Source: Nitrospirota bacterium
GTDB taxonomy: Bacteria > Nitrospirota > Nitrospiria > 2-01-FULL-66-17
Assembly: GCA_016201825.1 (NCBI GenBank)
Contig: JACQCD010000085.1
Location: forward strand, 1-62,895
Reading direction: 5' to 3'
Length of the DNA stretch: 62,895 nt
This document shows, one piece after another, positions 3,613 to 54,940 of the stretch (position 1 is the first letter of the stretch; each line of letters begins with the position of its first letter). A model generated the notes under the pieces. It did not search any database, was not told where the DNA came from, and saw nothing but the letters and a program-made list of their open reading frames with translations. The translations under genes and the position numbers were made by a program.

Positions 3613-4579
3613 CGCGATCAAGGTGGGCGTCATCGGCGTGGGGTACCTCGGACGACATCATGCGCGGCTGTACGCCGAATTGCCCGCGGCCACGTTGGTG
3701 GGCGTCGCGGACGTCGATGAAGGCCGCGCCCGGGACGTGGCGGCGTCGACCGGCGCCAGAGCCTTCACCGACTATCGCGAGCTGCTGTCCCAGGTTGACG
3801 CCGTGAGCGTGGTGGTGCCGACCAGTTTGCACCACCGCGTGGCGATGGATTGTTTGGACGCCGGGTTGGACGTGCTCTTGGAAAAACCGATGACGGTGAC
3901 GCTGGCCGAGGCCGACGAGTTGATCGCGCGCGCCGAGGCGAAGCGGCGCATCATCCAGATCGGCCACCTGGAGCGGTTCAACGGGGCCGTGCGGGCGCTG
4001 GCGCCGCGCCTGACCGCGCCGCGGTTCATCGAGTCGCACCGCCTGGGGCCCTTCGTGGGCCGCGGCACCGACGTCCACGTCATCCTCGATCTCATGATCC
4101 ACGATCTGGACATTATCTTGAGTCTCGTTCGGTCGCCGCTCACCGACATCCGGGCGGTCGGCGTGGCGGTGTTGACTCCCCATATCGACATCGCCAATAC
4201 TCGACTGGAGTTCGCCGACGGGTGCGTGGCGAACGTCACGGCGAGCCGGGTGTCCAAGGACGCGCTGCGCAAGCTGCGCATTTTCCAGCCGGACGCGTAC
4301 TTCTCGCTGGACTATCAGAAGCAAGAGGTCATCATGGCGCGACGCGTGGACGGCGCGACCGAGGCCGGCCTGCCGGCGATCGACATCCAGACGCTCCCGA
4401 TCGAGAAGGAAGAGCCCCTCAAGGCCCAGCTCTCGGCGTTTTTGGATTCCGTGGCGACCCGGCGGGCGCCGTTGGTGTCGGGGCGTGAAGGTCGCAGCGC
4501 CTTGCGGGTGGCGCTGGATGTGCTCACGTGCATCGAGGGCGGTGGTCCCGTCAGAAGAAGCCCGAGCGGTGAAACCTGA
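3605..4579 (+). CDS. Gfo/Idh/MocA NAD-dependent oxidoreductase, GnnA-like (UDP-GlcNAc 3-dehydrogenase candidate)
   Basis: GVIGVGYLG, LLEKP, QIGHLERFN, DLMIHDLD; lies between lpxI and lpxB. Confidence 0.88.
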   Translation: MGSAIKVGVIGVGYLGRHHARLYAELPAATLVGVADVDEGRARDVAASTGARAFTDYRELLSQVDAVSVVVPTSLHHRVAMDCLDAGLDVLLEKPMTVTLAEADELIARAEAKRRIIQIGHLERFNGAVRALAPRLTAPRFIESHRLGPFVGRGTDVHVILDLMIHDLDIILSLVRSPLTDIRAVGVAVLTPHIDIANTRLEFADGCVANVTASRVSKDALRKLRIFQPDAYFSLDYQKQEVIMARRVDGATEAGLPAIDIQTLPIEKEEPLKAQLSAFLDSVATRRAPLVSGREGRSALRVALDVLTCIEGGGPVRRSPSGET

Positions 4580-5808
4580 TGAGCGATGACCGGGCCAACG
4601 TCCTGGCGCCGCCCAGCCCTGAAACGCAGGGCTTGCGCGGCGCCGCGCTGGCGAAGCGGCTCTTTCTCATCGCGGGCGAAGCCTCGGGCGACGCCCACGG
4701 GGGCAAGCTCGCGTCGGCGCTGCTCGCGCGGAACCCCGCACTGAGCCTGGAAGGCGTGGGGGGCGCCGCGATGGAGAAGGCCGGCGTCCGCCTCCGGCAC
4801 GACATCCGTCATCTCGGGGTGGTCGGCCTCGTCGAGGTGCTCTCGCAATGGCGGTCGATCTGGCGGACCTATCGAGACGTGCGGGCGCGGCTGCGCGAGG
4901 CGCCGCCCGACGCGCTGGTGCTGATCGACTATCCCGAATTCAACTTGCGGATTGCGCGCCTGGCGAAGGCGCTCGGCATCCCGGTCATCTATTACGTGAG
5001 TCCCCAGATCTGGGCCTGGCGCCCCGGCCGGATCGCGGCGATCAAGTCCGTCGTCGATCTGATGCTGGTGCTTTTCGAGTTCGAAGCCGAAGTCTACCGC
5101 ACGGCCGGCGTGCCGTGCCGGTTGGTCGGCCATCCCCTGCTCGACGACGCGGCGCCCGATGCCGATCAGGAGACGTTTGCGCGGCGGTATCGCCTGGCGA
5201 CGGGGGAGCGCGCGTTGGGTCTGTTGCCGGGGAGCCGCGCGCTCGAAGTCTCGCGCCTCCTGCCCGCGATGCTGGACGCGGCGGAGCGCCTCCACGCCGC
5301 GGGGACGATCGATCGGGTCCTGGTTGCCGTGGCGCCGTCGATCGACGCCGGCCTGGTCCAATCGTTGGTCGATCGTACCGGGGCGTTTCGCGCCCGCGTG
5401 ACGGTCGCGATCGGCGAGGCGGCCGCCGTCCTCCGCGCCTCGCGCGCGGCGGTGGTCGCGTCGGGCACGGCCACGTTGCAGGCCGCGGTGATCGGCACGC
5501 CCCTGGTGATGGTGTACCGGGTGGCGCCGCTCACCGCGTGGATCGCGCGGCTTCTGATCACGATCCCCCACGTCGCGCTGGTCAACGTCGTGGCGGGGCG
5601 GCGCGTGGTGCCCGAATTGGTCCAGGAGCAGATGACCGCGGAGCGGATCGCGGCCGAGGTCGGTCGCATCTTGACCGACGAGCGTACCGCGTCGGCGATG
5701 CGGGCGGACCTTGCCCGGGTGCGGTCCGCGCTGGGCGAACCGGGGGCCTCGGCCCGCGCGGCGGAGGCCACGCTGGAGTGGCTGGCGCAGGGAGCGCGTC
5801 ATGGTTAG
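4579..5808 (+). CDS. lpxB: Lipid A disaccharide synthase
   Basis: IAGEASGD, IDYPEFN, YYVSPQIWAWRPGR, LLPGSR, SGTATL. Confidence 0.97.
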   Translation: MSDDRANVLAPPSPETQGLRGAALAKRLFLIAGEASGDAHGGKLASALLARNPALSLEGVGGAAMEKAGVRLRHDIRHLGVVGLVEVLSQWRSIWRTYRDVRARLREAPPDALVLIDYPEFNLRIARLAKALGIPVIYYVSPQIWAWRPGRIAAIKSVVDLMLVLFEFEAEVYRTAGVPCRLVGHPLLDDAAPDADQETFARRYRLATGERALGLLPGSRALEVSRLLPAMLDAAERLHAAGTIDRVLVAVAPSIDAGLVQSLVDRTGAFRARVTVAIGEAAAVLRASRAAVVASGTATLQAAVIGTPLVMVYRVAPLTAWIARLLITIPHVALVNVVAGRRVVPELVQEQMTAERIAAEVGRILTDERTASAMRADLARVRSALGEPGASARAAEATLEWLAQGARHG

Positions 5809-7570
5809 CGGCGGGACCTCCCGGGCATCGGTGGTGCGACGGCTTTTGCGCTACGTCAAGCCGTACTGGGGACGCTTTATTCTCGCGTCGGTCTGCGCGG
5901 GAGGCGTGTCCCTGTTGACCGCGGCGAACGCGTGGCTGGTCAAACCGGTGTTGGACGAGATTTTCGTCCAACGCAACACCGCGATGCTCGCCATCCTCCC
6001 GTTCGCCATCGTCGCGGTGGCCGTCGCCAAGCGCGCGTTTCAGTTCGCGCACGTGTACCTGATGGGGTATACCGGCAATCGGATCATCACCGACATTCGG
6101 GACGCGCTGTACCATCACATCCTGAAACTCTCGCTGACCTTCCACGCCACGCACTCCACCGGGGCGTTGATGTCGAACGTGACGAGCGATGTCGCGTTGA
6201 TGCAGCGGGCGGTGTCCGGGGTGATCAAGGATCTCATCCAGCAGCCGCTGACCTTGCTGGCGCTGATGGGGGTGACCATCTATCAGAACTGGCGGATGGC
6301 GTTCATCGCGATCGCGGTCTTGCCGTTCGGGTATTATCCCATGATCCGATTGGGGCGGCGGCTCAAGCGCCTTGCCCACGCCGGCCAGGAGCGAGTGTCG
6401 GAGCTTTCATCCATCCTGCAGGAGACGTTTTCCGGAATCCGGGTGGTCAAGGCGTTCGGCACGGAGGCCTTCGAGGCCGAGCGCCTGCGCGACACGAACC
6501 TTCGCTATTTCCGCAATACGATGAAGGTGACCACGGTCTCCGAGCTGGCGCCGGCGGTGATGGAGGTGCTCGGCGCGATCGGGGGCGCCGCGGTCATCGC
6601 CTACGGCGGCTACGCCGTCGTGTCGGGGCAGATGACAACCGGGGCGTTCTTCTCGTTCCTCACCGCGTCGTTTCTGATGTACGCCCCGATCCGCATCTTG
6701 TCGGCGGCCAACACCGCGATCCTGTCGGCGTCGGCCGCCGCCGAACGGGTCTTCGCCATCCTCGACGTCGAGACCGAAGAAGGAAGGGATCGGGGCCGCC
6801 GCGAGCTGACGGGGGTTCGCGAGGGCATCGAGTTCCGCGACGTGGGGTTTACCTACGACGGCGCCGAGCGAGTCACGCTGGCGGGCATCACCCTGCGGGT
6901 GCGCGCGGGCGAGGTCGTCGCGGTGGTGGGGACCAGCGGAAGCGGGAAGACGACGCTCGTCAATCTCTTGCCGCGCTTCATCGAGCCCACGCGCGGCGCG
7001 ATCTTCATCGACGGAGTGGACGTGCGCGAATTGCGCCTCGCGTCGCTGCGTCGCCACATCGGCGTGGTGAGCCAGGAGGTCGTCTTGTTCGACGACTCGG
7101 TCCGCAACAACATTGCCTATGGGATGACAGACATCGTGCAGGCCGACGTCGTCCGGGCGGCCGAAGCGGCCTACGCCCATCCCTTCATCCTCCAATTGCC
7201 GGCGGGATATGACACCGTGATCGGCGAGCGCGGGGCGACGCTCTCGGGAGGCGAGCGTCAACGGTTGGCCATCGCGCGGGCGCTGCTCAAGGATCCCCCC
7301 ATTCTGATTTTGGACGAGGCGACCTCGGCGCTGGACGCGGAATCCGAGGCGATCGTCCAACGGGCGCTGGCGAACCTGATCGCCCATCGGACCACGTTCG
7401 TGATCGCCCATCGTCTTTCGACGGTCCAACGGGCCAGCCGGATCGTAGTGTTGGACCGAGGGACGATCGTCGAGGAGGGGACCCACGCGAGCCTGCTCGC
7501 CAGGCAGGGCATTTACGCCAACCTGTATCGTATCCAGTTCGAACCCGAGGCGCGCTATGCCGGGTCGTGA
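5801..7570 (+). CDS. msbA: Lipid A export ABC transporter (TMD+NBD)
   Basis: Six-TM domain, Walker A GTSGSGKTT, LSGGERQRLAIARA, DEATSALD; ATG 5801 overlaps the lpxB end. Confidence 0.93.
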   Translation: MVSGGTSRASVVRRLLRYVKPYWGRFILASVCAGGVSLLTAANAWLVKPVLDEIFVQRNTAMLAILPFAIVAVAVAKRAFQFAHVYLMGYTGNRIITDIRDALYHHILKLSLTFHATHSTGALMSNVTSDVALMQRAVSGVIKDLIQQPLTLLALMGVTIYQNWRMAFIAIAVLPFGYYPMIRLGRRLKRLAHAGQERVSELSSILQETFSGIRVVKAFGTEAFEAERLRDTNLRYFRNTMKVTTVSELAPAVMEVLGAIGGAAVIAYGGYAVVSGQMTTGAFFSFLTASFLMYAPIRILSAANTAILSASAAAERVFAILDVETEEGRDRGRRELTGVREGIEFRDVGFTYDGAERVTLAGITLRVRAGEVVAVVGTSGSGKTTLVNLLPRFIEPTRGAIFIDGVDVRELRLASLRRHIGVVSQEVVLFDDSVRNNIAYGMTDIVQADVVRAAEAAYAHPFILQLPAGYDTVIGERGATLSGGERQRLAIARALLKDPPILILDEATSALDAESEAIVQRALANLIAHRTTFVIAHRLSTVQRASRIVVLDRGTIVEEGTHASLLARQGIYANLYRIQFEPEARYAGS

Positions 7571-8227
7571 GGCGGCCTGGCGCCGGTGGGTGCCCTCCGT
7601 GATCGCCGCGCTGATCCGGGGCGTGGGCCGGACGATGCGTCTCGAGACCGTCAACGCCGAGGCAATCATGGCGCGCTGGCGGCGGGGCGAGGCGAGCATC
7701 ATCGCCTTTTGGCACGGCCGCCAACTCATGCTGCCGCTGGCGTATCACGGGTCGGGGCTCACGATTCTGATCAGCCGACATCGCGACGGCGAACTGATCA
7801 GCCGAGCCATGGTGGCGTTTGGGTTCTCCGCCGCGCGCGGGTCGACGACGCGCGGCGGTGCGGTCGGGCTGCGCGCCCTGGTCGACGCGGGTCGGAAGGG
7901 GCGCGATGTGGCCGTCACGCCGGACGGTCCGCGAGGACCTCGCGAGGTCGTGCAGCCGGGCGTGATCCAACTGGCGCGGCTGACCGGTCTCCCGATCGTT
8001 CCGCTGGCGTTCGGGGCCTCAAAAAAAAAATCCTTCGCACCTGGGACGGGTTTCTCATCCCGGTCCCGTTCGCGCGCGGCGTGTTCGTGTGGGGGGACCC
8101 GCTCTGGGTTCCACGCGACCTGGGAGCGGACGGGTTTGAGGAGCGCCGCCGCGCGCTGGAGCAGGCGTTGATCGACGTGACGGGCCGAGCCGATCGACGA
8201 TGGGAGAAGGCGCCGGACCGCGCGTGA
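7557..8227 (+). CDS. DUF374/LpxJ-family lipid A secondary acyltransferase, split by a -1 frameshift at the A10 tract (8021-8030)
   Basis: Frame 0 gives FWHGR, ISRHRDGE, RGSTTRGG, TPDGPRGP up to ...FGASKKK. The -1 frame continues ILRTWDGFLIPVPFARGVFVWGDP...TGA 8227, which overlaps the waaA GTG. Joined product about 223 aa. Confidence 0.85.
8021..8030 (+). repeat. A10 homopolymer at the frameshift site
   Basis: GCCTC-AAAAAAAAAA-TCC in an otherwise very GC-rich gene. Confidence 0.95.
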
Positions 8228-9528
8228 TTCGGCGTCTCTATACGGCGGCCCTTGCCGTCGGTCTGGTCGTGACCGCCCCGAGCTATCTCGCCAAAGCGAT
8301 ACGACGCGGGACGGGCCTGGCCCTGCGCGAGCGGCTGGGACGCCTCCCCGACCATGTCGTCGCGGCGGTGCGCGACCGGCGTGCGGTCTGGGTGCACGCC
8401 GTGTCGGTGGGCGAGGTGACCGCGGCGGTGCCGCTGCTCCGCGAGATCAAAATTCGGTATCCCACGGTGTGTCTGTTCGTTACCACGGTGACCGCGACCG
8501 GGCGCCAGACGGTGATCGAGCGCGTGCCCCAGGCCGACGCCGTCGCCTACTTCCCGCTCGATTTCCCCCGCGTGGTGGATCGACTGTTGGACACGATCAA
8601 CCCGCGCCTGTTTCTCTGCGTGGAAACCGAGCTCTGGCCGAACTTCCTCTCCGCGCTGGCGCGGCGGGGCATCCCGGCCTTTCTGGTAAACGGACGGTTG
8701 AACGCCCGATCGGCGCGACGGTACCGTTGGGCGCGCCGGCTCTTCCAGCCGGTGTTAGCGGGCTTCTATGGGTTTGCCGTCCAGACCACCGCGGATGCCC
8801 AGCGGCTGGCCGGGATCGGCGCGGACCCCGGTCGGATCGTCATCACCGGTAATTTGAAATTCGACCAACCGGCGGATGATGCCGAGACGGGAGATCCAGC
8901 TCGGCGGGTCGGTTTGGGGTTGGCCGCCGACGAACTCCTCTGGGTCGCGGGAAGCACGCGTCAAGGGGAAGAGGAGCCGCTCCTCGAGGCGTACCGTCGG
9001 CTCAGGGGCCGAGGGGTCCGAGTCGTGCTGCTCATCGCTCCCCGGCACCTTGACCGTCTCGACAAGATCGAGGCGATGGTGCGGGCGCGTGGGTTCGACC
9101 CGGTGCGCCGATCGGCGTGTCCGGCGGGGCAGCCGAGTCCCCGCGGGGAGGGCGGCCCCGCCCGGGTCATCGTCCTCGACACGATCGGTGAGTTGGCCGC
9201 GCTCTACGGCGAGGCGGCGCTCGCGTTCGTCGGGGGGACGCTCGTGCCGGTGGGCGGGCACAATCTTCTCGAACCGGCGGCGCGCGGCAAGGCCGTGGTG
9301 TTCGGGCCCCACACGTACAAGTGCGAGGAAATTGCCGCGGCAGTGCTTGAATCGGGCGCCGGTGTGCGGGTCGATTCGGTCGATGCGCTGGAAGAGCAGG
9401 TGGGGCGGTTGTTGGCGGATCCGGTGCTGCGCGAGCGGATGGGCCGCCGCGGGCGTGAGATGGTGGCGAGAAATCAGGGCGCGGTGGAGCGGACGTTGGC
9501 GTTGCTCCATCCGTGGTTGGTGGAATGA
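8224..9528 (+). CDS. waaA: Kdo transferase
   Basis: WVHAVSVGE, ETELWPN, TGNLKFD, GSTR, GGHNLLEPA; GTG 8224. Confidence 0.96.
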   Translation: MIRRLYTAALAVGLVVTAPSYLAKAIRRGTGLALRERLGRLPDHVVAAVRDRRAVWVHAVSVGEVTAAVPLLREIKIRYPTVCLFVTTVTATGRQTVIERVPQADAVAYFPLDFPRVVDRLLDTINPRLFLCVETELWPNFLSALARRGIPAFLVNGRLNARSARRYRWARRLFQPVLAGFYGFAVQTTADAQRLAGIGADPGRIVITGNLKFDQPADDAETGDPARRVGLGLAADELLWVAGSTRQGEEEPLLEAYRRLRGRGVRVVLLIAPRHLDRLDKIEAMVRARGFDPVRRSACPAGQPSPRGEGGPARVIVLDTIGELAALYGEAALAFVGGTLVPVGGHNLLEPAARGKAVVFGPHTYKCEEIAAAVLESGAGVRVDSVDALEEQVGRLLADPVLRERMGRRGREMVARNQGAVERTLALLHPWLVE

Positions 9529-9676: not shown

Positions 9677-10741
9677 GTGATGTCGCTGCTCGTTCAGATT
9701 CCATTGATGATGGCCTCCGGTCTTTACGGCGCCGGGGTCGGAGTCCGTGCGTGGTGGTATCGGCGCGCCGGAGGACGTGTCCACACGCTGGGCCGGCCGG
9801 TGGTGTCGGTGGGCAATCTGACCGTGGGCGGGACCGGCAAGACCCCGCTGGTCATCGCGATCGGAGACGCGCTGCTGGCGCGCGGGGTCGACGTGACGGT
9901 CTTGAGCCGAGGGTATGGGGGAGCGCTGGAACGAGTCGGTGGGCTGGTCTCCGACGGCTCCGGCCGGCGCCCGCTCGACTGGACCGACGCCGGGGATGAG
10001 CCCGCGCTGATCGCTCGGCGGCTCCCACGGGCCGCCGTGATTGTGGGCCGCGATCGCGCGTCCGCGTGGTCGCGGTTCGGGCGCGCCCGCCCGCCGGGCG
10101 TGTGCCTGTTGGACGACGGGTTTCAACACCTGGCGATCGCCCGCGACGAGGATCTCCTCGTGTTGGATGCCACCGAGTCGTACGCGGACGCGGCGCTCTT
10201 GCCGCGCGGTCGGCTGCGCGAGCCGCTGGGCGCGCTGGCGCGCGCGTCTGCGGTCGTCGTCACGCGCGTGGACCAGGCGGCGCCGGGCGCGGTGGAGGCG
10301 ATCGACGCGCTGGTCCGGCGCGTCCGCTCCGACGTCCCGATGTTTTACGCCCGGTTTGCGCTCTCCAGTCTGGCCGCGGTCGGCGCAGGGGGCACGGCCC
10401 CGTTAGACCGCCTGGCGGGCGCCCGCGTCGTGGCGGTCGCCGGTATCGGCCGCTTCAAATCGTTTGTTTCGCTCTTGGAGCGCGCCGGGGCGAAGGTGGT
10501 CGCGACCCTGCGCTTTCGCGACCACTACCCCTACCGGCGCGCCGACGTCGACGCCGTGCGGGCGCGCTGCCGCTCGGTCGGCGCCGATTTTGCGGTGACG
10601 ACGGAGAAAGACGCCGTCAAACTGGAAGCGTTGGTCGCGTCCGGTGAGGCCCTGTGGGCGGTGAGGATGGACGTGCAGGTGGAGGACGCCTTGGCGTGGA
10701 GCGCGTGGCTCGATCGGGTGGCGCGGCTGGTGGCGGCGTGA
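9677..10741 (+). CDS. lpxK: Tetraacyldisaccharide 4'-kinase
   Basis: VVSVGNLTVGGTGKTP, LSRGYG, GDEP, LLDDGFQH, LLPRGRLREP, FRDHY, TTEKDAVK. Confidence 0.96.
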   Translation: MMSLLVQIPLMMASGLYGAGVGVRAWWYRRAGGRVHTLGRPVVSVGNLTVGGTGKTPLVIAIGDALLARGVDVTVLSRGYGGALERVGGLVSDGSGRRPLDWTDAGDEPALIARRLPRAAVIVGRDRASAWSRFGRARPPGVCLLDDGFQHLAIARDEDLLVLDATESYADAALLPRGRLREPLGALARASAVVVTRVDQAAPGAVEAIDALVRRVRSDVPMFYARFALSSLAAVGAGGTAPLDRLAGARVVAVAGIGRFKSFVSLLERAGAKVVATLRFRDHYPYRRADVDAVRARCRSVGADFAVTTEKDAVKLEALVASGEALWAVRMDVQVEDALAWSAWLDRVARLVAA

Positions 10742-39925: not shown

Positions 39926-40990
39926 GTGAATCTCCTCTTTCGGGTCGACGCCTCGGTCGAAATCGGGATGGGGCACCTCATGCGCTGTCTAGCCTTGGCC
40001 CAAGAGTGTCATCAAGCGGGCGACGATCTCCTGTTCGTCATGGCAACGCCCATGCCGACGTGTGTCGCCAGGGTTCGCTCGGAAGGGTTCCGCGTGGCGT
40101 CGATCAGCGCCCACCCCGGAAGCGACATGGACGCGAGCGAGACCGCCGCGATGGCCGATCAGATGAATAGTCCGTGGGTGGTAATCGACGGCTACCACTT
40201 TGCCGCCCGTTACCAGCAGATCATCAAGGGTGCGGGGTTTCGGCTCCTCATGGTGGATGACTGGGCGCATGCCGACTCCTATTGCGCCGACATCGTCTTG
40301 AATCAAAACATTGGCGCCGAAGAGCGGCTCTATCGATGCCGAGAACCTCACAGTGTCCTGCTGCTGGGGACTGGCTACGCCCTCTTGCGTCGGGAGTTTT
40401 TGGAGTGGCGGGGACGGCGAGATCGGGTGATCCCCAGCGTGGCCCGGAGGGTGCTGGTGACGTTTGGAGGATGCGATCCCGCCAATGCGGCGCTGACGGT
40501 CCTCCACGCCCTAGAGCGGATCCATGAGGCCGGCCAGGACCTGGATGTGGTGGTGGTCAGTGGCGGCGGCAATCCACACCACGATCGGCTCCAGTCGGCC
40601 GTCGAAACGTCTCCGTTGGCGGTGCGTCTTGTCCAGGACGCGAGGAATATGCCCGAGCTGATGGCGTGGGCGGATCTGGCTGTTTCGGGGGGGGGCAGCA
40701 CGTCATGGGAGCTCGCGTTTATGGGAGCGCCTTCCGCCTTGGTGGTCCTGGCGAAGAATCAACAGGCCGTTGTGACGGGGTTGGCTGGCGCCGGGGTCGC
40801 GGTGAACCTGGGGTGGATCAACGAGGTGTCGACCGCGCGGCTCGTAGACGTCTTAACGCGCCTGATGCGCGACCCCGCTCAGCGCCGCCTCATGTCCAAT
40901 CTGGGCCAGAAGTTGGTCGACGGGGGCGGGAGGGCGCGAGTGCGTCAAGCCCTGCACGAGCGGTTGCCGGCGAAATTGGTGGGAACGTGA
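39926..40990 (+). CDS. pseG: UDP-2,4-diacetamido-trideoxy-altrose hydrolase
   Basis: FRVDASVEIGMGHLMRCLALA, IDGYHF, LLRREF, TFGGCD, GGGSTSWEL. Confidence 0.9.
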   Translation: MNLLFRVDASVEIGMGHLMRCLALAQECHQAGDDLLFVMATPMPTCVARVRSEGFRVASISAHPGSDMDASETAAMADQMNSPWVVIDGYHFAARYQQIIKGAGFRLLMVDDWAHADSYCADIVLNQNIGAEERLYRCREPHSVLLLGTGYALLRREFLEWRGRRDRVIPSVARRVLVTFGGCDPANAALTVLHALERIHEAGQDLDVVVVSGGGNPHHDRLQSAVETSPLAVRLVQDARNMPELMAWADLAVSGGGSTSWELAFMGAPSALVVLAKNQQAVVTGLAGAGVAVNLGWINEVSTARLVDVLTRLMRDPAQRRLMSNLGQKLVDGGGRARVRQALHERLPAKLVGT

Positions 40991-53993: not shown

Positions 53994-54940
53994 TGTACTC
54001 TGGACAAACAGCAATCGATTATCTTGGGACTGAAGTCAGTAAGGACGACTCGGGCGAGTCCTCTCACTGGCGCAAATATCACTCCTCGTTTCGATTTACG
54101 GGGGATGGGTTTGAAGGCTTGCAGGGCTTCGGTGTGAGTGAGAAGCCTTACCGAGGGTTGCGCTTGGGGTTGCACCGCCTGTTACAACGTAGGTTTCGCC
54201 GGATGGGAGCAGAATTTCCCCAATTCACGGCGATTGACAGGCTAGCTGATAAAATAATGTCCCGGCAGGGGCGCGCCTACGATCTGGATGTGCTTCGGCA
54301 GTCGCTCACGCTTGCCTTTTTGAGAGATCGGATTCCTTACGCTATTTCGCCTCAGGCAACGGTTTGCGTGATTGGGGATGGGTTTGCGTCGATGACCGCC
54401 CTGTTGCTCGCCAGCCGTTCGGCAGGTCTGGTTGTGCTGATCAACCTCACGAAAACCTTGCTTGTTGATCTCTGGCATCTCAAACTTTGGATGGGAGAAG
54501 AGGCCTTTGCATCCCGTGTTGATCTTGTCACGGATGAAGAGGGCCTTTCACGTGCGCTCGCGACAACGGCCGATATTGACGGGGGGGGGCGAGTGGTGGC
54601 GATCCAGGCCTCGCGTCATGAGTTGCTGAAGCGATGTCCGGTGGATCTTGTCTTGAACATCGTATCGATGCAGGAAATGGACCCCCCGGTCATTGCGGCC
54701 TATTTCGATGACATGCGCGCCATTGCATCCCAACGGCAACTGGTTTTCTATTGCTGCAATCGCGAGGAGAAGACACTGCCAGACGGCACGGTGACTTGTT
54801 TTGCAGCGTATCCCTGGCACGAAGGCGACCAGATTCTCGTGGATGAGCTTTGCTTATGGCACCAGTTCTACTATGTATTGAGGCCGTTATTTTTCAGACC
54901 CTATGACGGTCCAATTCGACATCGGCTGGTGACTCTCTAA
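53990..54940 (+). CDS. Putative sugar O-methyltransferase
   Basis: VIGDGFA, NIVSMQEM, FYCCNREEK; in-frame G9 tract at 54581-54589. Confidence 0.65.
   Translation: MMYSGQTAIDYLGTEVSKDDSGESSHWRKYHSSFRFTGDGFEGLQGFGVSEKPYRGLRLGLHRLLQRRFRRMGAEFPQFTAIDRLADKIMSRQGRAYDLDVLRQSLTLAFLRDRIPYAISPQATVCVIGDGFASMTALLLASRSAGLVVLINLTKTLLVDLWHLKLWMGEEAFASRVDLVTDEEGLSRALATTADIDGGGRVVAIQASRHELLKRCPVDLVLNIVSMQEMDPPVIAAYFDDMRAIASQRQLVFYCCNREEKTLPDGTVTCFAAYPWHEGDQILVDELCLWHQFYYVLRPLFFRPYDGPIRHRLVTL

Follow-up and report, generated by a model that had tools for sequence, protein, structure and literature searches.

The subject of this analysis is lpxJ, a predicted lipid A late acyltransferase gene of the DUF374 (LpxJ) family, in a Nitrospirota bacterium of the class Nitrospiria; it lies on contig JACQCD010000085.1 of assembly GCA_016201825.1, and the window referred to throughout is positions 1 to 62,895 of that contig, 62,895 nucleotides in all. 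The reading frame of this gene appears to be deliberately split at a run of ten adenines (A10), with full-length LpxJ obtained through transcriptional slippage that adds one A, a reading to which we give a probability of about 0.6. That the run is a real, conserved and selected recoding site, decoded by slippage of one kind or another, we hold with high confidence, and the sequence comparisons below point to RNA polymerase as its probable main actor.

In the mechanism that we favor, RNA polymerase would slip on the T10 template and add one extra A in a fraction of messages, and full-length LpxJ (223 amino acids, junction ...GASKKKILRTWD...) would be made only from the slipped messages. A smaller share of the same protein might come from -1 ribosomal slippage on A_AAA_AAA. 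The run would in this way hold active LpxJ at a fixed low fraction of the potential output of a tightly coupled operon.

The split gene and its product

The features of the split gene are as follows.

7557..8030, + strand: lpxJ (DUF374) part 1, zero frame, from ATG 7557 through the A run, with the PF04028 match
8021..8030, + strand: A10 run of exactly 10 A, the proposed recoding site
8021..8227, + strand: lpxJ part 2, -1 frame, KKKILRTWDGFLIPVPFARGVFVWGDPLWVP..., ending at TGA 8225-8227 within GTGA 8224-8227
8031..8171, + strand: zero-frame tail of 46 codons plus the stop 8169-8171, read without slippage and not conserved
8043..8067, + strand: local GC hairpin GGGACGGG / CCCGGUCCC (arms 8043-8050 and 8059-8067), 12 nt 3' of the run, not a conserved element

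The zero-frame open reading frame (ORF) 7557..8171 encodes 204 amino acids and reads TTC GGG GCC TCA AAA AAA AAA TCC (FGASKKK) at the run, where the -1 frame, that of ORF 7586..8227, reads AAA AAA AAA ATC CTT CGC ACC TGG GAC.... The start at ATG 7557 agrees with the N-termini of relatives (MPNREAAWRR...). Either A11 or A8 restores the frame, and an additional A in the mRNA or a -1 slip of the ribosome fuses parts 1 and 2 to give ...FGASKKKILRTWDGF.... A first-pass annotation of this DNA, made from the sequence alone, had described an A10 tract with a -1 offset, a genuine C-terminus in the -1 frame and a GTGA overlap with the downstream gene waaA, and the reading frames bear out all three. It had also remarked that this genome mostly uses AAG for lysine, which is borne out in the neighboring genes (AAG 22, AAA 10).

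The first 158 residues of the zero frame match DUF374 (PF04028) at 89.4 bits against a cut-off of 26.8, in agreement with the family assignment of the first-pass annotation, and the gene is the only DUF374 copy in this genome. Neither the 46-codon zero-frame tail nor the -1-frame peptide taken alone has a Pfam match, and no NCBIfam model matches the LpxJ protein. The annotation had considered the tail to look non-coding, and the tail is not conserved among homologs.

The need for the C-terminal part can be gauged from the characterized enzyme of Rickettsia typhi, in which W60A, H61A, D86A, D132A, W172A and D173A each abolish LpxJ activity (Guillotte et al. 2018, PMC6148475). Residue correspondence was taken from the mutagenic primers of that study, which place W172-D173 in ...RLKSWDKLIIPIPFG (PMC6148475). 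The joined product has all six residues. Part 1 supplies FWH (W52, H53), HRDGE (D77) and TPDGPRGP (D123), and only the frameshift brings in TWDGF (W163, D164), the W-D pair; all six are invariant in alignment A1 of 41 in-frame homologs. An AlphaFold (AF2) model of an in-frame homolog that is 73 per cent identical (P0001; predicted local distance difference test, pLDDT, 90.4; predicted template modeling score, pTM, 0.88) places three β-strands and a long C-terminal helix after the position of the run, and its best matches in the PDB are PatA, PlsC and LpxM (E 3e-7 to 2e-5), the lysophospholipid acyltransferase (LPLAT) fold. Part 2 thus holds the W-D pair together with the last strands and the C-terminal helix of the fold. 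From these comparisons the gene is predicted to encode an LpxJ-type lipid A late acyltransferase. The unshifted product consists of 158 genuine residues and a meaningless 46-residue tail, and should be inactive, since the essential W-D motif and some 60 C-terminal residues, over one quarter of the fold, are missing from it.

The run is also exceptional within its own genome, a metagenome-assembled genome (MAG) of 147 contigs, 2.8 Mb and 63 per cent G+C. The A10 at 8021-8030 is its longest A/T run, and only three A/T runs of nine or more occur in the 2.8 Mb; the expectation for runs of at least 10 under independent, identically distributed bases is 0.2, and the A10 run is far beyond chance. The other two A/T runs are both of nine (C73:41588-41596, A9; C88:16267-16275, T9). 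Long G/C runs are many, among them G9 at window positions 40687-40695 and 54581-54589 and the C12 and C11 at C34:81-92 and C121:14460-14470, and some of them sit in apparently coding regions.

Spread and selection of the out-of-frame run

The joined protein was searched against 41 related genomes and the loci were then read. Nearly every one of these genomes that has the gene returned separate matches to the N-terminal and C-terminal parts in frames differing by -1. In 25 of 27 loci of the same class, the TGG GAY of the WD.F..P.PF motif follows an A9-A11 run at a distance of 10-12 nt, and the part carrying that motif is in the -1 frame. The remaining two are G019, which is in frame without a run (SSSSRKELKAWD), and a locus cut by a contig end.

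A scan of 185,579 species, each represented by one genome, for the exact pattern TCN, A8, N12, TGGGA... found at least 120 loci. Among the matches listed, 117 of 120 are true DUF374 sites. Most of these carry the names Nitrospira, Nitrospiraceae, Nitrospirales or Nitrospiria; several are on closed chromosomes, and the isolates Nitrospira sp. BLG_1 and T9 are represented among them. The requirement for TCN missed families with CGC, CGT, CTC or TTA before the run, and a relaxed pattern was then scanned. In a sample of 301 Nitrospirota genomes, DUF374 is present in 195 and a run of A9 or longer at the site in 95; a reversed control pattern had 0 matches in the same 301. The 95 positives cover nearly all sampled Nitrospiria with the gene, many single-contig closed genomes included, and extend to four families of other classes (f14, f15, f19 and f26) in which the codon before the run is one of the four just named and not TCA. 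The families f18, f21, f22 and f33 are in frame and have no run. In many genomes of f22 (e.g. G049, G065 and G080) DUF374 is present in two or three copies, each of them apparently in frame and lacking an A run.

On metagenome contigs about 100 of 102 true sites are out of frame. Outside Nitrospirota, the site is present in MAGs that bear the names Deltaproteobacteria, Thermodesulfobacteriota and Acidobacteriota. In a second GTDB phylum, which includes the Thermodesulfobacteriota-named genome, it was found in 5 of 61 sampled genomes, and 10 of the 13 genomes of one order around one such MAG carry it. Altogether 254 unique sites have a conserved A9-A11 run at the homologous position. A genome named Acidimicrobiia (G344, 6.2 Mb) has two Nitrospira-type lpxJ copies on short contigs (L035 and L106), and the Acidimicrobiia matches are probably Nitrospira contigs in a mixed bin. 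A single origin of the frameshifted state was considered and rejected: a FastTree phylogeny of 157 proteins needs at least 13-20 changes of state, most of which are single in-frame tips on a tree that is weakly supported at depth.

Selection was estimated from pairwise dN/dS, the ratio of nonsynonymous (dN) to synonymous (dS) rates, over 152 pooled sequences (gene G+C 38-72 per cent; 110 codons before the run and 50 after it). The ratio is 0.17 for the N-terminal part and 0.27 for the C-terminal part, at a dS of about 1.3-1.4, where synonymous sites are near saturation; these values indicate purifying selection on both halves. The check proposed in the first-pass annotation, that an out-of-frame run shared by homologs and selected on either side would indicate programmed recoding, has come out in favor of such recoding. 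All nine positions of the run are nevertheless A in 152 of 152 sequences, compared with only 44 per cent AAA among lysine codons elsewhere in the same genes, and the serine codon that gives the first A of the run is TCA in 137 of 152, though TCA is among the rarer serine codons elsewhere.

The location of the frame change is bounded by stop codons. The zero-frame tail varies in length from 4 to 91 codons among homologs and in four loci its stop begins 3-4 nt after the run, and in 11 loci the first two A's of the run belong to a TAA of the -1 frame. Given these stops on both sides across the family, the frame change must occur inside the run. In-frame homologs have eight residues between 'GA' and 'WD', the spacing of the product of one added A or of a -1 tandem slip (SKKKILRT), a spacing that the loss of two A's would not give.

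Transcription, translation and other explanations

Transcription is favored as the level of slippage because the runs are never shorter than nine, A_AAA_AAG is absent, and neither a conserved structure nor a Shine-Dalgarno (SD)-like motif accompanies them. At 159 unique pooled out-of-frame sites the run is A9 in 121, A10 in 36 and A11 in 2, and nine is the length at which slippage by bacterial RNA polymerase turns efficient and at which genomic selection against runs appears (Baranov et al. 2005, PMC1088944). No out-of-frame A7 or A8 and no A_AAA_AAG variant was found among the 159-254 sites, in scans that required at least A8/A9. RNAalifold on 79 diverse homologs returned no consensus structure (0.0), with median z values against shuffles of -0.4 downstream and -0.55 upstream, and the consensus has no SD-like motif upstream of the run. 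The only recurrent pairing, GGGAY:RUCCC, follows from the W-D and x-P codons.

It might instead be supposed that the run is copied faithfully and that the ribosome makes the shift, two adjacent lysyl-tRNAs slipping back together on A_AAA_AAA to give the same SKKK junction. The heptamer is available in phase in both codon phases of the run (phase 2 in 144 sites, phase 0 in 14), the -1 product is identical to the in-frame homologs, and the window itself has a hairpin 12 nt downstream. That GC hairpin, which the first-pass annotation had pointed out, is present in the minimum-free-energy fold of this sequence (z = -2.0), but it is not a conserved stimulator among the 79 homologs. Its spacing, 12-15 nt, also exceeds the 5-9 nt that usually separates a slippery site from its stem-loop, and a run of seven would suffice for a ribosomal site. 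Programmed -1 ribosomal frameshifting as the main route is therefore unlikely in our estimation, although a minor ribosomal contribution to the product is possible.

Several points weigh against transcriptional slippage as we have framed it. Nine A's always contain an in-phase A_AAA_AAA heptamer, and out-of-frame variants with shorter runs could have been missed outside the protein-based samples, the pattern scans being limited to A8/A9 and longer. In-frame alleles on DNA contigs, including a lineage of five members, imply that change of run length in the DNA plays some part. Finally the regulatory or physiological purpose, as well as the molecular step (RNA polymerase or ribosome) and the efficiency of slippage, is something that we infer.

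These in-frame alleles are rare, being found, in unbiased samples, in 1 of the 95 Nitrospirota genomes and at 2 of about 102 true sites on metagenome contigs, but they recur. Alleles with one added A are seen in four lineages. A closed genome (G267) has A10+G where its sisters have A9+G, a JGI contig (L196) has A11 in frame where its sisters have A10, and L194 and L195, which belong to one species, have the added A in two unrelated sequencing runs, on contigs that could derive from either DNA or RNA. Several Nitrospira-like database proteins are also in frame, one variant (P0018) has lost an A, and one 90 per cent cluster mixes 2 in-frame with at least 13 truncated members. The Nitrospirales lineage of L058 and the P0061 cluster is in frame (AYSKKKIFSSWD) in five members on contigs of 15-55 kb; an A11 was deduced there from the peptide, the closest genome (OZ251550.1) has the usual out-of-frame A9, and the allele could be a natural 'high-expression' variant. 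A further locus, L263 (FWPV01007148.1), is in frame yet keeps A9 (TCA AAA AAA AAG ATC...). If A9 is slippery, that organism would lose part of its LpxJ to slippage, an arrangement like that of dnaX.

In the protein tree, each in-frame variant that has retained the run stands as a single tip beside frameshifted sisters, and the deeper in-frame groups (G291, G019 and a 28-member clade) are without the run. Another single in-frame tip, G122, has a run shortened to A8. Among the sampled Nitrospiria with DUF374 only 3 of about 80 are in frame, two of them with a shortened or broken run. In-frame alleles thus appear to arise often and rarely to persist, which points, as a rough and qualitative inference, to selection against the in-frame form. 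It is mainly because they so rarely persist that we call the site programmed and not merely tolerated.

The same alleles bear on two further explanations. One is phase variation at the DNA level, in which slipped-strand mispairing would toggle the gene between OFF (A9/A10) and ON (one A more) and full-length LpxJ would come only from ON cells. The four lineages with an added A, the one variant with a lost A, the mixed cluster and the lineage that is in frame on long DNA contigs are what such a switch would produce. Known contingency loci, however, commonly show both states. Here that is not so among close relatives, and with 98-99 per cent of genomes and contigs in the 'off' frame a pure ON/OFF switch does not fit. 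The C-terminal part, moreover, is under purifying selection at dS >1, which would need steady expression from the 'off' allele, and the run-keeping in-frame variants are tips where the deeper in-frame clades have lost the run. We consider this explanation improbable. The first-pass annotation had left the choice between slippage and a phase switch at this tract; programmed slippage is supported, with the transcriptional form favored and not proven, and a pure ON/OFF switch is not.

The other explanation holds that one base was lost ancestrally from a lysine-rich A tract and that unprogrammed slippage has rescued the gene ever since, the arrangement having no regulatory value. Selection for expression alone would preserve the run in such a case, and a zero-frame tail conserved in neither length nor sequence, along with the lack of any conserved accessory signal, is in keeping with it. 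The hosts, however, are free-living bacteria with large populations in which the +1A reversion is frequent and has been seen, and still the reverted form stays at 1-2 per cent and is seldom followed by decay of the run; the split state also persists across several classes and into a second phylum. A tolerated lesion accordingly has little likelihood in our view. Least credible of all is a homopolymer error of sequencing or assembly, or a recently dead pseudogene in this MAG. The 147-contig assembly and the proneness of homopolymers to error in some technologies would invite that suspicion, but the same offset recurs in hundreds of independent assemblies, closed genomes and isolates included, and the part beyond the run is under purifying selection.

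Operon context, known systems and biological meaning

The split gene sits within a lipid A and Kdo (3-deoxy-D-manno-oct-2-ulosonic acid) gene cluster in the order lpxB-msbA-lpxJ-waaA-lpxK-GT9, whose other members are listed here.

4579..5808, + strand: lpxB (lipid-A-disaccharide synthase), PF02684, 295.5 bits
5711..7570, + strand: msbA-like ABC lipid exporter, ABC_membrane 172.6 bits and ABC_tran 116 bits, directly upstream of lpxJ
8224..9528, + strand: waaA (Kdo transferase), PF04413, 204.9 bits, with GTG 8224 overlapping the lpxJ -1-frame stop
9677..10741, + strand: lpxK (tetraacyldisaccharide 4'-kinase), PF02606, 282.3 bits
10654..11799, + strand: GT9 heptosyltransferase (waaF/waaC-like), PF01075, 171.2 bits

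lpxJ overlaps its neighbors at both ends (7557-7570; GTGA 8224-8227), its ATG being placed within msbA, 14 nt from the end of that gene (stop 7568-7570); an alternative start for waaA is ATG 8200. Because of this double overlap, translational coupling along msbA-lpxJ-waaA is suggested for the family to which the window belongs. Coupling of waaA to the -1-frame stop was considered as a general feature and set aside, as the overlap is lineage-specific: lpxJ and waaA overlap by -4 or -10 nt in the window's family and some others, but in Nitrospira proper the two genes are 40-100 nt apart.

Programmed slippage at a homopolymer is a known kind of recoding, to which lpxJ adds. In Shigella flexneri mxiE, slippage at a nine-base homopolymer joins two ORFs (summarized in PMC1088944). 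The resemblance to mxiE (with spa13/spa33) is that two overlapping ORFs of a cellular gene meet at a homopolymer, of nine bases in mxiE, and that the longer, active protein requires an added base; mxiE, however, is a plasmid-borne virulence regulator of one genus, whereas lpxJ encodes a chromosomal lipid A enzyme in several classes and at least two phyla, and its slippage is predicted. Thermus thermophilus dnaX has an A9 run, and about half of its product comes from slipped transcripts, giving tau and gamma (PMC1088944; PMC3711429). It shares with lpxJ an A9 motif on the sense strand of a housekeeping gene and has no need of an accessory RNA structure. There the long product comes from the standard frame and slippage yields a useful short one, both functional; the standard product of lpxJ, by contrast, appears to be inactive, and its one active form depends on slippage.

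The -1 frameshift of Escherichia coli dnaX resembles that of lpxJ in its direction, its lysine-codon slippery heptamer and its place in a cellular gene. The E. coli site is A_AAA_AAG, the classic efficient ribosomal site, with an SD-like element and a stem-loop; in lpxJ neither stimulator is conserved, and the heptamer always lies within at least nine A's and never ends in G. Genes of insect endosymbionts (Buchnera, Blochmannia) that are frameshifted at poly(A) tracts are still expressed via transcriptional slippage. Those, however, are scattered, lineage-specific lesions in AT-rich genomes dominated by drift, whereas in lpxJ a single site of a single gene has been retained at dS >1 by free-living bacteria whose G+C reaches 72 per cent and in which such runs are otherwise nearly absent.

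The LpxJ proteins of Helicobacter, Campylobacter, Wolinella and Rickettsia agree with the one studied here in Pfam family, the six essential residues, the LPLAT fold and a lipid A/Kdo gene context. The characterized genes are nevertheless in frame, the R. typhi site reading ...TTA AAA AGT TGG GAT... (PMC6148475). Searches of the literature on LpxJ/DUF374 frameshifts, on slippage in Nitrospira and on slippage in acyltransferases found no description of the site or of a frameshift in lipid A genes of Nitrospira, and none was found in a GeneTack survey, which covered one Nitrospirae genome, or in a 2016 recoding review. Public records call the truncated ORF (169-207 amino acids) a 'lysophospholipid acyltransferase family protein'; annotation therefore misses the active enzyme, and pathway reconstructions may mis-score late acylation of lipid A. 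Only a small number of ordinary bacterial genes are known to have a conserved programmed frameshift (prfB, dnaX, copA, Mg-chelatase, mxiE and a few others), and lpxJ adds to them a core enzyme of envelope biosynthesis. It also offers a simple natural sequence on which slippage of RNA polymerase could be measured outside model organisms.

As to what such a site might do, it is possible, though we put it forward tentatively, that the A run acts as a two-level rheostat for the secondary acylation of lipid A. On the first level, that of RNA, the efficiency of slippage would vary with nucleoside triphosphate pools, temperature or elongation rate and would set the amount of active LpxJ obtained from a translationally coupled lpxB-msbA-lpxJ-waaA operon. 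In the window's family, only ribosomes on slipped messages end at the GTGA of waaA, and Kdo transferase output could thereby be tied to slippage. On the second level, that of DNA, a 'high' state would come from rare heritable +1A alleles, which would remain slippery at A10/A11. Were the rheostat borne out, it would amount to a conserved recoding control of outer-membrane composition in nitrite oxidizers and other environmental Gram-negative bacteria, one that was inherited from a deep ancestor or has spread between phyla. The site is kept across Nitrospira, the main nitrite oxidizers and comammox bacteria of soils, waters and treatment plants, and the finding suggests that these bacteria deliberately restrict how far their lipid A is secondarily acylated.

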